In this document: piece by piece, positions 2,344 through 55,092 of the stretch
Numbering within the stretch: the first letter of the stretch is position 1
Layout: each line of letters starts with the position of its first letter
Assembly: GCA_013239625.1 (NCBI GenBank)
Contig: MU055922.1
Location: forward strand, 1,071,289 to 1,135,288
Length of the DNA stretch: 64,000 nucleotides
From: Lama guanicoe
Taxonomy: Eukaryota
Direction: 5' to 3'
The notes under the pieces: generated by a model
Seen by the model: only the letters and a program-made list of their open reading frames with translations
What the model was told of the DNA's origin: nothing
The model's database searches: none
Made by a program: the position numbers and the translations under genes

Positions 2344-3350
2344 TTTGTTTGCCTGATTAAGTTATGCTGGCTAGATCCTCAAGTGCAATGTTGGACAGAA
2401 GAGGGAAAAGTGGATGTCCTTGGACGTCCTTGGTCTGTTCTTGATGCTCAAGGGAAACATTCAGCCCTTCACCATGAAGTATGATACTGGGGTTTCACTG
2501 ATGGCTTTGATTGGGTTGAGTGTTTTTATCATGAAAGGATGATGGAGTCCTAGTTTGGGCTGCTGTAAAAATTACCGTAGACCAGGTAGCTTAAACAACA
2601 GGTGTGTCTCACAGTTCCGGAGGCTGGGGAGTCCCAGAGAAGGGTGCCAGCATGGCTGGATGATGGAGAGAGATGTCCTCCTGGCTGGTAGACGCTGTCT
2701 TCTTTCTGTGCCCTCGTACAGCAGACAGCAAAGAGAGGAGGGAGAGCGAGCTCTCCTGTCTCTTTCTAGAAGGGCACTAATCCCGTTTGTGAGACGCCCA
2801 CCCTCATGACCCAAGGCCCCACCTCCTAACACCATCACACGTGAGCTTGGGGGAGGACAAACATTTAGTCCATATTCAGTTGGGTTTTGTCTTTTTTAGT
2901 TTCTATCTTGTGATTTGTCAACAATGATAGAGCACTTTTTTTTTCACATGTGAAACCAACCTTACAATCCTGGGATAAATCCCACGTGGTCATGGTGCAT
3001 AATCCCCTTTATACATAGCTGGATTCTGTTTGTTAGTATTTTCTTGAGGATTTTTGTATCTATGTTAATAAGAGATAGTGGTCTGCAGTTTTCCTGTAAT
3101 GTCTGTTTCTGGTTTTGGTATCAAGATAATACCTCACAGAACGAGTTGGGACGCGTTCCCTCTTCCATTTTTGGTAAGCGTTTATGAAAGGTTGTTAATT
3201 CTTTAAATGCCTGGCAGTACTCTAGTGAATCTGTCTGTTCCTGGACCATGTTGTGGGAATTTTTTTCACGAATTCAGCCTCCTTACTTGTTATAGGTGTA
3301 TTCAGATCAGAGTATCTATTTCTTGCATCAGTTTTCTATCTTTCGTCTTC
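2344..3350 (-). mobile_element. Old L1 (L1M-type) ORF2 fragment, split by an MLT1 LTR
   Basis: Typical antisense L1 ORF2 text (ctggctagatcctcaagtgcaatgttg; ccaaccttacaatcctgggataaatcccac; gaggatttttgtatctatgtt) that continues on both sides of the MLT1. Confidence 0.75.
2546..2878 (-). mobile_element. MaLR solo LTR (MLT1A-like)
   Basis: Recognisable motifs gggctgctgtaaaaattacc, gcttaaacaaca, tctcacagttccggaggctggga, cccacctcctaacaccatcac, acaaacatttagtccata. Flanked by 5-bp GATGG/GTTGG (2541-2545, 2879-2883). Confidence 0.8.
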
Positions 3351-3533: not shown

Positions 3534-3666
3534 GGCACTCAACACAAGCCAGCTGAAGGCCCTGAGTATCGAAATGCTGCCTGGATATCGTGATCCCTAC
3601 TCGTCCAGGCCTCTCACCAGGGGTGAGATCGGCTGCTTCCTTAGCCACTACTCTGTCTGGAAAGAG
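3534..3666 (+). CDS. COLGALT2: COLGALT2 internal coding exon ([44 protein letters not shown])
   Basis: ctgcag|G acceptor and GAG|gtaaac donor. Carries the GT25-family GEIGCFLSH motif. 133 bp, in frame with the next exon. Confidence 0.95.
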
Positions 3667-4019
3667 GTAAACGATGCTTCATTCAGATGTGCAGTTGTGT
3701 GATGAAGAAGAAGGGGCGTGGGACTTTGTAGGTGAATTAGGGCCAGATATAAAGTGGACCCATAGCTGTTCTGGGAGTATGCTGGGAAGCTGGTGTTCCC
3801 TCGTGTCCCCTCAGACACCAGACTAGTGACAAGCAGGGAGGGGTAGCTTTGGTGCCACGTGGGACGATGGCTGGGGACGACGCTCACGTTCCGGGGGCCA
3901 CACTCGTGCTGATGCGTCCTCACCCTTAGTAGGAATGCCTTGTGTGTATCTAGCATGTCATCGGTTATTAAGTGATTCAACACAGGAAGCCACCCAGAAG
4001 CCGCGTGAGGTGGGTGGCG

Positions 4020-4115
4020 GGGGATGGGCCCATTCTACCCAAGAGAAAATAAATAAATATCTTGGCCAGGCAAGAAGTGGCAGAGCCAGGACTTGAACCC
4101 ATGCCTTCCAGATCA
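4020..4115 (-). mobile_element. MIR SINE fragment
   Basis: MIR core-like text: cccattctacc..aagtggcagagccaggacttgaaccca. Confidence 0.5.
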
Positions 4116-4254
4116 GACATTGATGGGGGTGGTACTGAAGGTGGGGGGTTCTAGACTAAGGGCCAGTTCCCACAAGAAAACAGCCCCCAAAGAAAGGCGC
4201 CTTGAAAGGGCCTTGTCTTAATGATCCAGTCTATGCCTGTCTTCTTTATTCTTC

Positions 4255-4730
4255 ACACTTGACATGAAATTTTATAGACAGAAGTATATGGAACATAAGG
4301 TGCAAGCCAGTGAAGTTTCACAAGTTAAGCAGCACGACCACGTTAACCAGCATGTGGCTCACGCGGCAGGTCACTGGCAGGTCACCGGCAGGTCACCAGC
4401 AGGTCACTGGCAGGTCACCGGCATGTCACCAGCACCCAGAAGCTCGTCTCCCCTCTGTGTTTCTTTCAGGCCATCAGTCCCCAGCGGTGATCACTGTCTT
4501 GGCTTCTAACAGCACAGAATAGTTTTGTCCACTTTTGTCCACTTTCTATATGAATGGGACTGTATGGCGCATAGAATCTCTCAGACATTATGAGATTCAT
4601 CCATGATGCTGTGTTTAATTGCAGATCAGTTCCTTGCACTGCTGTAAATGTGCCAGTTTATCTGCCTGTCCTCCTGTGATGGGCATCTGCTTAGGCTCCA
4701 GCTCTGAGCTCTAACATGCTGCGCCACCAC
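4255..4730 (-). mobile_element. Old L1 (L1MC/L1MB-like) 3' UTR fragment
   Basis: Antisense L1 3'-end text: accagcacccagaag, ttctaacagcacagaatagttttg, tgagattcatccatgatgctg, cctgtgatgggcatctg. Confidence 0.6.
4368..4433 (+). repeat. Minisatellite: 6 x 11 bp (AGGTCAcyrgc) organised as 2 x 33 bp
   Basis: AGGTCActggc AGGTCAccggc AGGTCAccagc AGGTCActggc AGGTCAccggc ATGTCAccagc, read directly from the sequence. Confidence 0.95.
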
Positions 4731-4809
4731 ACTCTCGACTCTTCGATACTTGTTAAATAAAGAACAGGTGCCAAGCTTCTCACAGGACGTCCTCTGATGC
4801 CCTTCACAG

Positions 4810-4937
4810 GTGATTGACCGAGAGCTGGAGAAGGCCCTTGTCATTGAGGACGACGTGCGTTTTGAACATCAGTTTAAGAAGAAACTGATGACGCTGATGG
4901 ATGACATTGACCGGGCTCAGCTGGACTGGGAACTGAT
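4810..4937 (+). CDS. COLGALT2: COLGALT2 internal coding exon ([43 protein letters not shown])
   Basis: cacag|GTG acceptor and AT|gtgagt donor. Carries the EDD acidic motif of GT25 enzymes. 128 bp. Not in the ORF track. Confidence 0.95.
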
Positions 4938-5534
4938 GTGAGTGACAAGACGAGCTTGTCAGGGAGCACTGGGGGCTTTCGGTTCTCTCCGAGGGGCAGA
5001 GCGCCTCCTCTCCCCAGCGCGTAGGCGATACGGCTCAAGCTTCCATTTTCCTGGTTTTCCTCCATAAATGTTCCCAGAAACAAGAAGTGAGTGGAGGAGA
5101 GCCTCCGGTTTTTGCATGTCTGTGTGCTGCAGGGTGAGAAGCTATGGGAGGTTCTTTGAGACGTGGGGTCTGGCTGCAGATCAAGGGCCTTCAGGCTCAG
5201 CGCTCACCTGGGAACACAGCAGAAGTGGTACATGGCGGGAGTGTGTGGAGGGAGGAGGGGGCGCTCGTTCAAGGGCGAGGGTCCCGTGTCACCCTTAAGC
5301 CTCAGCTCCCAGGTGGACGGGTTTCCTCTGCAGCCCCTGATGGTGTGGGAGGTTTGGAATGTCAGCGGGCGTGCTCCTGTTGGGGAGGGAGGCTGCCCAA
5401 CAGGACAGAATGCTGACAGCTGGGTTTGAGGGCTCAGAGGCTGTCTTCAGAAAGCCAGGCTCACCAAAGGGAGCACTGGCTCTGAGCCGACATTTAGTTA
5501 ATGCTCGTTGCCAGCTGCCTTGGGAACTGAGCTT

Positions 5535-5558
5535 TCTCTCTCTCTCTCTCTCTCTCTC
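5535..5558. repeat. (TC)12 microsatellite
   Basis: Read directly from the sequence. Confidence 0.9.
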
Positions 5559-6424
5559 ATTTTCTTTTTACACTAAAATAACACTTTTTGCTTCTCTCCA
5601 GTGAAGCAGAAAGTTCCCAAGCGTGATGTGCACTTCCCAGCTGTGTGTCAAAGGCAGTTTCATCAGACCAGGGGCTGTTCCTTTGCGGCAGCTGCGGGAG
5701 ACAGGCCGTCCCTGCCCCTCCCATCCTCAGGGGGACGCTTAGCTGTGGGCCCAGGGGGAATGTTTGTTCTCTTAGAAAATGTGCCATTCTGAGCTTGAAA
5801 GGAGCCTAGGGATGGCTCAGCTAACCCGTGGGACGTAGACCCAGAAATCGGTACCATGTGATTTAAAAGACTGGCTCCCTGTCAGGTACCAGTCATGTGA
5901 TTAGATTCTGTGCTGTCTCTTAAGGTCACTGTTCCTATAATCCTCCAGAATCCCCTGCTCGTCAGCCTGTGGTTCCGGCCTCGCAGGCACGGAGCCGGGG
6001 AGCTGGTCTATGCCTCCATGACATGCACAGAGGCCTTGGAGTCACAGAGGGCTGGGCTCGGGGAGTCTGAGGCTTGGGATCGACACATGCCCCTGTTCAC
6101 GTGTAGTTTCTCTGATACATTTCCCGGGACAGGGTACCAGCAGATCCAAGAAAGAAGAATGATCGTCCTGATAAAGATACAGGGGAAAAAAAGATGTTTC
6201 CCAGACTTGATCAAGTCAAACTATCACACTGAGATCTATTATAGACTCATCAAGACTTATAGTGGCTTCAGACTGCTCACATCTCACTTTCTAAAGTGAA
6301 TGAAACAAACATTACTTAAATTCAGAATGTGAAAGCGGACAGGCTGTCCATGGCTGCTGTATTGGGTTTCTTCGGAGAAAGGAAGTTGTAAAAAGGGAGA
6401 AAAGAGCAAGTCGTTATCTAGGGC

Positions 6425-6850
6425 AGCGCGTCCAACAGAACTATAACGTGAACCACCCAACGCTTCAGATTTTCTAGTAATCGCATTGAAAAGATAAAAA
6501 TGAGTGGAATTAACTTTAATAATTATATTTAACCCAACATATCCAAATTATTTTAATATGTAAGCAGTACTTTACAACTATTAATGAGAGAGTCCATGTT
6601 CTTTTTTCATCCTGTCTTCAAAATCCAGTGTGTATTTTGCAGACACAACACATTCTCCATCCAGGTAAATTTTCAGCTGTTGAAGTAACCTGTGGTCCTG
6701 CCAAAATATAATGGTACATCTTGTGTAATGGAAAAAAATACTTTATACATCTTTAATTTTTAATTAAAATTGAAATTTAGTAAAATTAATAAACTGAGTA
6801 CAAACCCCCATCCCTCAGCCACTCTGGCCGCATCTCAAGTGTTGAGTAGA
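6425..6850. mobile_element. hAT-Charlie DNA transposon remnant (MER33/Charlie5-like)
   Basis: Begins cagcgcgtccaacagaactataa. Internal text aattaactttaataattatatttaacccaacatatccaa and tcttcaaaatccagtgtgtatttt matches MER33 as I recall it. Confidence 0.7.
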
Positions 6851-7828
6851 ATTTTCTCTTGCACTTTGTGTAAGAGAGCAATCCAGGCTCTTGGGTCCTG
6901 AGGAGACAGTGGCCGGGAGGCTGACGTGTTTGTCCTCAGAAGGACTGAAGGTGAACACAGGCTTGTTCTGCAAATCCTGGGATGTTTCGACAAGAGGGAT
7001 CCCTTGAGCATTGAAAGAGACAGTTTCAGGCAAAACAGAGGAAGTCAGCTTTATCGAGTGAGCGGGGAGCGGACGTCCTCAGCTTGCTCCAGACAAGTGG
7101 AAGCGACTCAGTTCCAGACACAGTGATGCGTTGCCGATGCGTGATGGGGCTAGGGAAGGTGGGAAGGCTGAGGGCACCTCCCGTGTTACAGAAGTTGTTT
7201 GTGGATGGCAGGACACGACTGGGGACAGAGCACCCAGGAGGAAGCGTGGGCACGGCTCGGGGAAGAGGAGAAGGCCCATGGGTGTTGTCATGCTTTACGC
7301 ACCCCCCCAACTCCCGAGGAAACCCCCTCGGGCGCCTCTTGGGTTCCAACCTCCTTTACTGCAGGCTGTGTCTTCCCCGCGGCCTCTTCTGTGGTGTGTT
7401 TACCACCAGCATGTGGAGAGCTGTGCAGGAAATACTGAAGGCGAAAACTCTGGGGACTCGAAAGCAAACTCCAGATTCTCACATCTGGCCGTTTTTGTCC
7501 CCTTCCAACCTCTGTGAGCACAGCTGGAAATCCCATACTGTCTTTGAGAAGTGATCTCAGAGTTTTTTTTAAATCTCTCTACATCTCAGCAGTCAGGCTT
7601 GAATAGTCTTCCAGGCAAAAATAGTTGGGGTGTTGATAAGGGGAACCAGCGAAATGGGCCCACTGATGGCCGGTGACCCACATGGTGGACGTGATGTGTC
7701 TCGTATGATACGTTCAATATGCGACACACTGGGTCCAGGCTTTCATAAGTGTGTGCAAAGCTGTGATCTGTTCTCATGGATGTCCCGTATTTGAACTGGA
7801 ATCTTCCCCTCCGCCCACTTCCTTTTAG

Positions 7829-10797: not shown

Positions 10798-10910
10798 GTG
10801 TGGACACCCTGGGTCGGGTCAGGGATCTGGTGTGGACACCCTGGGTCGGGGATCTGGTGTGGACACCCTGGGTCGGGGATCTGGTGTGGACACCCTGGGT
10901 CGGGGATCTG
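10798..10910 (+). repeat. 27-bp minisatellite, 4 copies (GTGTGGACACCCTGGGTCGGGGATCTG)
   Basis: Three identical copies at 10830-10856, 10857-10883 and 10884-10910, preceded by a 32-bp variant at 10798-10829. Confidence 0.95.
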
Positions 10911-11922
10911 GTTCTCCCGCGTCTCCCAGCCTGACTCTCACAGGGAGGCCTGCTGAGTGGGAGAGTCTGACCTTCCGGAAACAAATGATTCTCCGTTGCA
11001 GGTGCGAGAACTTGGTTAGAAACAACGGGCTGATCAACTGATGGAAGCCGACAGCCAGGGAAGCCCTGGGAGGCAGGAGCCCGGGCAGACCGCCTCTCTG
11101 CTTGGCTTCTAAGTGGATTTCACGTAAAACGCAGAGCTGGACGGCGCCATCTCTTTCACCGCTTCAGCTCCGCCATCTGCGATCGTTGGATGCCTCACGA
11201 TGATTTTTGGTTTATGTTCTCGTGCCCACACGCAGTAACACTTGGCCTCCAGAAACCCCCTCCCCGGGCTCCCCATCCACACACGCTCCTCTCTCGGTGT
11301 CCTTGGTGTCGGGCTTTGCAGGGCCAGCAACCTGAGCTTCATGCTTTGGGGCAGCGCCCGCCGTGGCCTTGCTGGTGGTACCAAGCTGACTGCCCCCCGG
11401 GCAGGGCCCCCGGCTGCAGGGCAAGTGGGCAGCGTCCTCCCACAGAGCACCGGCCCCGCCCTTCGCTGTTCCCCTGTGGCTGGTTCTTCTGCGTTGACCA
11501 ATGAGCCAGCAGGCTGAGGAAGGTGATCTCCGCCGACTCTGATTTTTACTGCTTCGACAAAGCCAGTAGAGCTTGGCTCTTTTTTTTTCCCCCTAGAGAA
11601 ACAGAAAGACCATCTGGGGAGCTAGCGAAACCCCTAGGCAATTCCTGAGGCGTCCTTGGGTATTTCGTACTTCGTTTGCGTATTTGAGTGTGTGCAAGTG
11701 TGTGTGCATTTCATGATTTTTTAATGGGGTGGGCGGTGGCTGAGGCATTGGGAGTGGAGGAAGATTGAATTGATTTTTGTGTGGCGTTGTTTAATAGAGA
11801 ACATTGGTGTGTTTTTTTTTTTCTTTTTCCCTATCAGCTGGTCTGGTGGGTTTATGAATTCTCATTCTTAAAAGACATTGTTCATAAAATCTAGAACTTT
11901 AGCTTAGGACTGTTCTACTGTG

Positions 11923-23777: not shown

Positions 23778-26199
23778 CTGGAAAGACAGTGACAAGGCTG
23801 GTAAAGTGCTTAGCTTCACGTTTCCTGGAAGAGTTCTCCTGACCTTATTCTTACTGTCCTGTGTCTTTCCAGGGGAAACGGCCCAGTGGAATGAGAGCCG
23901 ATCAAGAGCCGATACTCCTGGGTTCTAGTCCTGGCTCCACCCTCAGAGGCCAAAAGACAATGGTCGCCCATTCTCTCAGAGCCACAGTGTCTTCCCCCAC
24001 AGAAACAGAGAGACTGAGTGCCTTGCCATCTCCCCACACGGGTTGAGGTTCCGATGGAAAACTATATAGGAGGGTGTTGTGAGAACTGTACCACGTTCTC
24101 AGTCCTGGGCCAAAGCCTGCCCCAACCTGTCGAGCTCCTGCTGTGGCCCTGGTCCAGCACCCGGGGGTCAGGAATGGCCGCGGCCCTGCAGGCCGACCAT
24201 TTCCAACCGCACAAGGGAACCCGGGACCCAGGAACCCCACCCCTAGGAATTCACCAGGAGAGATGAAAACGCAGGTCCACGCGAGGACTCGTCCACAGGT
24301 GTTCACAGCACACTGATTCCCAACAGCCCCACCTGGAACCAACACTGGCTCTCCATCCACAAGGGAACAGGGAGGATAAAGACACCGCAGTGCAATCACG
24401 ACGGGGCGCGGCCCGGCGGGTGCCGGGAACGGAGAGCCGAAACAGGCAGCCGCGTGGGGCATCTCACCAACGCCACGCTGAGCCAGAGACACCAGACACT
24501 AAAGACTGCGGGTCTGTTCTTTCAAAAGCAGGCCGGATTAACCTGTGCTGTTAGGAGACCGAGTTCAGCTAAGCTTATCTTCAACTGAGGTAAAAGCAGG
24601 ACTTACTGGAAGGGTCACAAGGGGATTTGCAGAGGGGGATGGAAAACGCTCTTTATCCAGACTGGGGGTGGTGGTGCCACAGATACACATATGTAGCTGC
24701 ATGTGTACATATGGGTATGGGTGTAGTTCTTAGAGCCCAAGGAACTGAACACTTCAGGTCTACACAGGTAACTTCAATCAAAATGAGCTAAGTGTTGACA
24801 AAGAATAAATCTAACATTTTTAATAAAGTGCGAGTAAGGCCTCGTCTCGCTCCAGTTACCCCCTTCATCCCTGCCCATCACCAGCCATTTTCAGGGTGTT
24901 CAGAGCAACAGGAAAAGGGGGCTGACTCAGGTACCAGCCCTCGGGTGATTATTCTTACTTAAAGACACAAGCTGTTCTCACCAGGAGGTGAGAGGAAAGA
25001 CAGCCAAAAAGAAGAAGAAATCTAATTTCCTCCAAGGAACTGTCATTTTGAGCCTGAGGGTGTCAGGCCCGCAGGCCTCCCCCTGGTCTGGGGCAGCGCC
25101 TGTATCTGTGAGTTAATAAACGATATGCGTTACAACGGGCGCCTCTGTCAGTAGCAAAGACCTGGCTCCAGTGTCTATTACCAAAACACCTGGCACATCC
25201 TTATATAAGGGAGAGGTGGATGCACAGAACATCCTAAAGGAGGAAAGATGGTTTTTGATAGTCGAAAGGAAGTGCTCCCACCGCTAGATCAAACTGGAGT
25301 AGGAGCTTAAAGCTAGAGGGAAAAGGCCACCGCCTGGGGGATGGTTGCTGGGTCAAGGTGGTCAGTGTTAAGATGTCACCTTTAAACCTGCTTACGGAGA
25401 AAGCCAGGCTACGCGTAGTTTCTTTAACTTAACTTAAACCTCCCTAGGTATGTGCAAACAAGGATGGGATGGCCAGGGACTCTTGAGTGTTTGTTACTTT
25501 GTACTTTCGAAGCTGCTGAGAGGACCTGATGATCAGAGAGCTCTCACAGCTCAGCCAGGCAGCCCTGTGCTGATGGGCTGAACCAGCGCTGCCTGAGGAT
25601 GCGTAAACGTGAGCCTTGTTTGTTACTGTAAACATCTAGTAGCCACTTCTAAAACCTTTTTCAAAAGGGAAGTTGATACATCCAAAACATTCTTTCAGCA
25701 TACAATCAATACAAGAATCGTCAATGAGTGATTTCATGTTCTTCTGTTGCTGTTGTTGTCAATCTTCGAAACCTCGTGTGTATCTTGTGCTCAAAGCCCA
25801 GCTCAGTTTGGACCTTTTGCATTTCAAATGCATAACCACCACACCAGGCCTGGGGGCTACGCTCCTGAATGAAGCGTGGATGTCACCTTCAGGCATCTTA
25901 AATAGGAAGTAAAACACCTGACCTGACCCGAGGTTAGTTGTCTAACGCTACAGGCTAGGCCTGCTTTTGAAGGATGAGACTCCAGCAGGATGCCCGGGGT
26001 GGTTTTTCTGTTTTGTTTTTGGGGGGTATTTTTTTTTTGGCTCAGCATGCTGTTTTAGAGATGGACCCCCTGGGTCCTGCCTCGGCCCACAGTCACTCCC
26101 TGCATGACCACATCTACTGCATCCACCGGGGGGGGGGGGCGGAGGGCTGGACGACTCCCAGCATCCAACCCCAGCACCAGCCTCGCGCCAACCTGTGTT

Positions 26200-54331: not shown

Positions 54332-55092
54332 AGAGTGCACTCTGAATTAGTCAGCCTGGAAACCGAGCCCACGAGAGCACGGTTCAACAGAGGTTCAGAA
54401 TCCAAGTTATGTTCTAAAAATCAGGAAACTTGCAATAAATAAAGGAACTTGGGCACAGATATTTCATGCAAATTGTAATAAACATATGGAACACATTATT
54501 CAGAAAGAGGCTTAAGCTCAGGGTTTAAAGGAATACGAGAAGCATCTGGCCCCCTTTCCAGAAGAAGAGGTATCTTCAGAGAGATGTGATGCAAAAGCAA
54601 AAAAGGCAGCCGTGAGGGCAGTCCAAGACAATACAGTCACACTGGGTCAGAGATAGTCTCTGCATGTAAAATGATCAATTTTCAAACATCCTCTCAACAG
54701 AAAATGTGATTAATGCAGGAGAAATAAAATATATCTTGGCTGGAAACCACCTGTGAGTTTTATTGTCTTATTAAGTAACCCACACAATTCCCAGCATGCT
54801 CAACACTGGGAACCTTAACCTCCAAGAGTGAAGGACCCTTGGCTTTTAAGCATGTGCTGTGGGGTTTGGAGCATATCTCACATTATACAATTTGGATTTC
54901 TCATTATCACATAAATGCACAATTTATCTTTAATTTGGACCAAAAGTGATTGTTTGAGCCCCACGCTCACATACACAGATGCTATATGGCGTCCATAGAT
55001 TTTCTAAGCATTTGAGTGGATTAAAGGTAGATTATTTTCTTCTGAGACACACAGATGACTGTAAATGATATGACATTTTTGGTCAAAAAATT

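Follow-up and report, generated by a model that had tools for sequence, protein, structure and literature searches.

A DR5-bearing minisatellite in a decayed antisense LINE-1 within an intron of a guanaco COLGALT-family gene, probably a neutral product of replication slippage

Intron 9 of a COLGALT-family gene of Lama guanicoe carries a short tandem array of nuclear-receptor half-sites, which is probably a neutral minisatellite in a decayed antisense LINE-1 (L1), a by-product of an 11-bp unit containing AGGTCA, without regulatory effect. The array was studied in a 64,000-nucleotide stretch of contig MU055922.1 (the window; all positions count from its first letter). The position of the array, its L1 context, its absence from other L1 copies and the background counts of similar arrays are matters of observation, from which we infer its neutrality. 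Three replication slips are the likely makers of the array, and its DR5 elements are likely the by-product of a unit that chanced to contain AGGTCA. A lineage-specific retinoid or nuclear-receptor element is a possible, though rather improbable, alternative.

Structure of the array and its host gene

The array consists of five AGGTCA hexamers, starting at 4368, 4379, 4390, 4401 and 4412, and one ATGTCA at 4423. The spacers between the half-sites are ctggc, ccggc and ccagc, in a cycle that runs twice. TRF called a period of 11 bp with 6.8 copies at 4359-4434 (86% matches) and a period of 33 bp with 2.1 copies at 4366-4434 (97% matches), and the hexamer positions, the 5-bp spacing and the cycling spacers described in an earlier note on this DNA were all borne out. 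Since its head-to-tail units are at least 7 bp long, the array is a minisatellite (4366-4434, forward strand) with six 11-bp units arranged as two 33-bp blocks, which differ at a single base (G at 4391, T at 4424). The stretch occurs once in the 2.05-Gb genome.

The five in-phase AGGTCA half-sites (4368-4417, forward strand) give four overlapping matches to RGKTCA-n5-RGKTCA, that is, two RGKTCA in direct repeat with a 5-bp spacer, the consensus DR5 element of RAR/RXR (PMC1785376). The sixth half-site (4423-4428, forward strand) departs from the consensus. The only other match in the window is at 54381, and 100 dinucleotide shuffles of the window gave a mean of 0.24 matches and a maximum of 2, although such shuffles hold no tandem repeats and the proper null for the array is other genomic repeats. 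The count of four overlapping perfect DR5s in the earlier note thus stands, but the phasing of the half-sites by one helical turn, also put forward there, adds no evidence, because an 11-bp step is inherent to every DR5 (6 + 5 bp). Adjacent DR5s have a half-site in common, so the four cannot be counted as independent, and the five perfect half-sites leave room for at most two heterodimers (three with the imperfect sixth). Moreover, any 11-bp unit containing RGKTCA generates DR5s automatically when it is repeated.

The array lies within intron 9 (3667-4809; CpG o/e about 0.40, no CpG island), 376 bp ahead of exon 10, and the intron is bounded by coding exon 9 (3534-3666, 133 nt) and coding exon 10 (4810-4937, 128 nt), all on the forward strand. 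Exon 10 encodes a part of a family 25 glycosyltransferase, with matches to Pfam Glyco_transf_25 (PF01755, E = 3.1e-6) and to solved COLGALT1 chains (E = 8.5e-10; 24 of 41 residues identical, 59%). Of the twelve coding exons detected, eight precede the window; the remaining four are at 3534, 4810, 7829 and 9476, and the final one terminates in KDEL-stop. The family 25 exon, the exon number and the ER-retention end identify the host as a COLGALT-family gene. By exon count, intron 10 (4938-7828, forward strand) starts about 500 bp downstream of the array. The earlier placement in a COLGALT2 intron holds for the gene family and, by Pfam, structures and exon count, for intron 9. The name COLGALT2 itself is an assignment that we draw from the paralogue-level identity to COLGALT1, from the protein sequence, which we take to be that of COLGALT2 rather than COLGALT1, and from a second CpG island at the place of human TSEN15. 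This island is located about 105 kb upstream of the window start (G000:C6462), 12 kb past the promoter island of the gene itself; in human, TSEN15 adjoins the COLGALT2 promoter (PMC10952352).

The start codon is 96.8 kb before the array, inside a CpG island. Around the array, CpG o/e is 0.34-0.40, compared with a window mean of 0.46, and the C>T change in a spacer (see below) suggests germline methylation. A pyrimidine tract ending in CAG (4444-4469) follows the array at a distance of 35 bp, still within the antisense L1, and might serve as a cryptic splice acceptor. About 1 kb beyond the stop codon, a 27-bp minisatellite of 3.6 copies (10816-10912, 98% matches) looks younger than the array and looks a better VNTR candidate. 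In intron 8, broken frames at 1-1700 are presumably decayed endogenous-retrovirus pol/env remnants, and the frames at 2950-3330 are, we assume, those typical of antisense L1 ORF2.

LINE-1 context and origin of the array

A 25-mer from the right flank of the array has 48 matches in the genome, compared with one for a control pattern. We built a profile from the first 29 of the 47 other loci matching the 25-mer, with the array locus excluded. This profile aligned to 4268-4717 (reverse strand; E = 9.6e-33, 62% identity over 376 columns) and spans both flanks, with the array appearing as an insertion. The one copy searched against structures (L044) matched human L1 ORF2p 1153-1221 in its antisense frame (E = 2.4e-15). 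These results corroborate the proposal of the earlier note that the flanks are an old L1 3' end, antisense to the gene; the decayed element extends from the 3' UTR into the ORF2 C-terminal region. Pfam recognised an L1 family in none of the 22 frames selected from a total of 106, and a single-sequence paralogue search of the window and 200 kb upstream gave nothing significant for the L1, where the pattern search did succeed. The subfamily may be of the L1MC/L1ME type.

Two landmarks that bracket the array are 84 bp apart here, and are 30, 32, 32, 33, 33, 43, 43 and 48 bp apart in the eight of the 29 other copies in which they could be measured. Subtraction of five 11-bp units from 84 bp leaves 29 bp, and the array is a gain of about 55 bp relative to its L1 family. 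It is absent from all 29 compared copies, among which it is thus private to the L1 copy studied here. We also considered a half-site borne by the family as a whole; an isolated RGKTCA occurs within the 100 bp preceding the anchor in 5 of the 29 copies, none of which has the array, and this candidate was rejected.

Other features of the family were observed at the same time. Around the array site, its members (L028-L056) have a short internal direct repeat with copies about 30 bp apart, and several carry deletions or insertions between these two copies, so the site seems prone to slippage. A tRNA-derived SINE, which seems to resemble the camelid type and would then agree with the lineage supposed in the earlier note, is inserted in copies L042 and L047. 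The window contains another copy of this old L1 3' end, in the opposite orientation, at 24459-24685.

The history of the array was reconstructed by a breadth-first search that allowed 11-, 22- and 33-bp duplications and single substitutions. The minimum history has five steps (three slippage duplications and two substitutions), comprising two 11-bp duplications, a C/T change in a spacer CpG, a 33-bp duplication and, as the closing step, G>T in the last half-site. The triplication of an 11-bp unit followed by duplication of a 33-bp block, as proposed before, is thus the shortest history found. With ATGTCA as the original seed, a history is possible but longer (seven steps, worked by hand), and the most parsimonious origin of ATGTCA is G>T once the 33-bp block had been doubled. 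The derivation of all three spacers by CpG decay of ccggc was also considered and is unneeded: ccggc and ccagc are produced by the 11-bp slip itself, and only ctggc requires a CpG change.

The events would have proceeded as follows, in an order that we reconstruct from the minimum history. Point changes, probably together with a 3-bp deletion, would have made one AGGTCA in the old L1 copy. A first 11-bp slip would then have copied AGGTCA, giving the ccggc and ccagc spacers by itself, and a second, with the C>T change at the CpG, would have brought the number of units to three. A 33-bp slip would have doubled these three units, and the later G>T would have broken the last half-site. The array is far younger than its host L1, although the dating is poor, with one difference between blocks in 36 sites (95% interval 0.07-15% per site). 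This divergence and the absence from the 29 paralogous copies point to a young origin. One of the two substitutions falls in a half-site, so there is no sign of half-site protection, a comparison with almost no power (n = 2).

Background of DR5 arrays and weighing of a regulatory role

Genome-wide counts were compared with those of the reversed pattern as a control, and may be lower bounds. Single consensus DR5s number 5,358, compared with 7,088 for the control, and the figure is close to the 5,786 given for human (PMC1785376 Table 1). Triplets of in-phase half-sites with the DR5 spacing gave 28 matches at 22 loci (control 22), whereas those with DR4 and DR6 spacings gave 53 (control 24) and 56 (control 28), counts which are partly inflated by 5- and 6-bp microsatellites; DR6 is not among the RAR spacings given in the text of PMC7406977. 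DR5 arrays are therefore not enriched, and the present array is rare compared with other genomic repeats without being significantly enriched. Five in-phase half-sites occur at 2 of the 22 triplet loci, and the longest control run is 4 in 22 matches. The difference between two runs of five and none is not significant; the locus is still a top case, and among three loci compared it is the only run of more than three perfect AGGTCA.

The second array (G000:C1972:10442297-10442405, L071:1501-1609) is larger, with 5 + 4 in-phase GGGTCA at an 11-bp period. Its surroundings are repeat-rich, and no gene within 30 kb was evident by eye among the best 60 of 817 frames in 60 kb. Three lone consensus DR5s were seen in the 264 kb examined around the present locus, compared with about 0.7 expected at the genome mean density. 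They are located at 54381-54397 of the window and about 50.8 kb and 86.3 kb upstream of its start (intron 1), and are a mild point for a retinoid link.

Binding by RXR heterodimers is of high affinity whatever the DR spacing and also takes place in a half-site mode, and their affinity does not predict activity (PMC6555819). The array would therefore probably bind RAR/RXR in vitro, and such binding, being expected, would not demonstrate function. Vertebrate genomes have thousands of RAREs, few of which are connected with chromatin and genes under RA regulation (PMC7259794). In the table of highly conserved RAREs of that paper, DR5 spacers end in a purine in 10 of 12 cases and in C in 1 of 12 (PMC7259794 Table 2), and every spacer of the array ends in C. 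This argument is weakened by protein-binding microarrays, in which no base was distinctly preferred within the spacers of DR2 to DR5 (PMC6555819). Regions bound by RAR/RXR often carry several motifs and their occupancy follows chromatin accessibility (PMC4446430), which would favour a multi-site element if the chromatin is open, and DR2 elements derived from Alu repeats can recruit RARs in vivo (PMC1785376). In rat chondrocytes treated with 1 uM ATRA for 24 h, COLGALT2 decreased (log2 -1.9) together with other cartilage genes (PMC12192781 Table 1), probably by an indirect effect, so it is not known there as an RA-induced target. Searches of open-access text revealed no report of the present repeat or of an L1-borne DR5 array made by slippage; supplements may list COLGALT2 in RA or RAR datasets.

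The suggestion of the earlier note that the array may be an enhancer found no support in the results. In that explanation, the array is a young, lineage-specific RA-responsive enhancer, where RXR/RAR would occupy two DR5 pairs and, with help from the intron-10 region, alter the RA response of COLGALT2 or a neighbour. It has perfect consensus half-sites at canonical spacing, and the length of its run is extreme (top 2 of 22 loci; no control run above 4). It is also near an intron that is an enhancer in human, and the roughly 500 bp between them means that the neighbourhood may be open in joint tissues. Bound regions with several motifs, the precedent of repeat-borne elements that recruit RARs, the activation of a reporter by five motifs in another system (see below) and the three extra lone DR5s likewise speak against neutrality. 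However, DR5 triplets are no commoner than controls, the last half-site is broken, the promoter is 97 kb away, the published COLGALT2 enhancer sits in the next intron rather than in intron 9, and consensus DR5s with little connection to RA-regulated genes abound in genomes (PMC7259794). We consider such an enhancer unlikely. That slippage in a dead L1 built a working multi-site RA or nuclear-receptor element, which would rewire COLGALT2 in one lineage and be tuned by unit number, is judged to be just as unlikely; if true, a hormone-response enhancer would here have arisen in a traceable way next to one already linked to osteoarthritis. Alternatively, the array may be a ligand-independent nuclear-receptor site or silencer, at which AGGTCA binders such as the promiscuous COUP-TF and TR2/TR4, unliganded RAR/RXR or RXR heterodimers in half-site mode would damp the nearby enhancer. 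The broad, high-affinity binding of RXR heterodimers noted above (PMC6555819) fits this explanation. On the other hand, 4331-4460 contains no extended monomer sites (ERRE, NBRE, RORE, SF-1), no ERE palindrome and no E-box, and five half-sites are far below the more than 15 motifs of MORC3-type repression (PMC13373173), so that we regard it as quite improbable.

Public sequencing runs bear on a further alternative, in which the 33-bp doubling, or the entire array, would be due to an error of assembly or to a private allele. Fourteen DNA runs with five organism labels contained 0.89-0.98 of words sampled from 3900-5300; seven of them are possibly the source of the assembly DNA, and the other seven come from six studies and include all five labels. 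The expected share is about 0.94 if the array is absent and about 0.97 if one 33-bp block is lost. Ten of the 14 runs had a share of 0.97-0.98, and three of these ten are not possible sources. These values weakly suggest that some form of the array is common to the runs, and word shares are silent on the number of units (three versus six). The best share was 0.98 and none was full, with which a shorter allele is compatible. Against an artefact, a single base distinguishes the blocks and exact repetition extends over no more than 25 bp, less than the length of a 31-mer; against it or a private allele, the shares in the ten runs exceed that for an absent array, although 7 of the 10 are possibly source DNA. 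An artefact or private allele is thus very improbable. Assembly of four runs onto 4230-4620 gave just a 36-bp match from another L1 copy, and the gap there is uninformative. In RNA runs, the shares of the same words were 0.09-0.24, values that carry no weight as evidence on copy number, and two of them (0.23-0.24) were above what exon 10 alone would give.

The reading of the array as a neutral minisatellite is based on the 55-bp gain over the L1 family, the five mutational steps, the DR5 counts at the background rate and the existence of a second long array elsewhere (5 + 4 half-sites). It is also favoured by the post-duplication change that hits a half-site (n = 1), the C-ending spacers, the 97 kb to the start codon and its CpG island, the low CpG o/e and the lowering of COLGALT2 by RA in rat chondrocytes. 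Purified RXR/RAR would bind the array, with a maximum of two heterodimers at once on its perfect sites, and a naked plasmid may well respond to retinoic acid; in chromatin, the array would be closed or unbound, or bound without effect. A neutral array matters little in itself, showing that eye-catching DR5 arrays arise by slippage at a background rate. The two loci with five half-sites in 2.05 Gb form a short list for testing how often such arrays turn functional. If the present one is functional, it would represent the birth of an enhancer with a known ancestral state (the L1 family) and a five-step history, within a gene for which dosage bears on collagen glycosylation and on the risk of osteoarthritis in humans (PMC10952352).

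Comparison with known systems

The DR5 RAREs of Rarb, Hoxa1 and Dhrs3 (PMC7259794 Table 2) resemble the array in having RGKTCA direct repeats 5 bp apart. These validated elements are single, deeply conserved and associated with RA-regulated chromatin marks (PMC7259794), whereas the array is young, was made by repetition and forms a chain of overlapping sites whose spacers end in C, recognised from its sequence. The DR2 RAREs of Alu are also consensus elements that arose by mutation within a retroelement, in about 100,000 copies and from a pre-site in the consensus (PMC1785376); in contrast, the array is confined to a single L1 copy, was gained by local slippage and is lacking from the 29 other copies. 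The IFNB1-MRE and the MORC3-restricted repeats, the nearest functional precedent, are likewise intronic tandem repeats with a transcription-factor motif in the unit, but have up to 61 motifs and recur across mammals (PMC13373173). With five perfect half-sites, the array falls below the threshold of more than 15 homotypic motifs for MORC3 repression and in a range where activation of a reporter was no more than mild, five motifs in a tandem repeat having sufficed for this in another system (PMC13373173 section 11).

The human COLGALT2 methylation-sensitive enhancer (cg18131582) is located in intron 10 of 11, is linked to osteoarthritis and is described with predicted AP-1 and other sites (PMC10197248), and a second enhancer is in intron 1 (PMC10952352); the string 'retino' is absent from the main text of both papers. 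The array, in intron 9, would be about 500 bp to 3.4 kb from the counterpart of the intron-10 enhancer by exon count, the gene being presumably the same. It can also be compared with reporters of a different kind. In synthetic multimerised DR5 reporters, separate DR5 copies adjoin a minimal promoter. Both have several DR5s in a row, but the array shares its half-sites and is 97 kb from the promoter. Set beside these systems, the array behaves as a homotypic cluster of motifs that a minisatellite contains incidentally.
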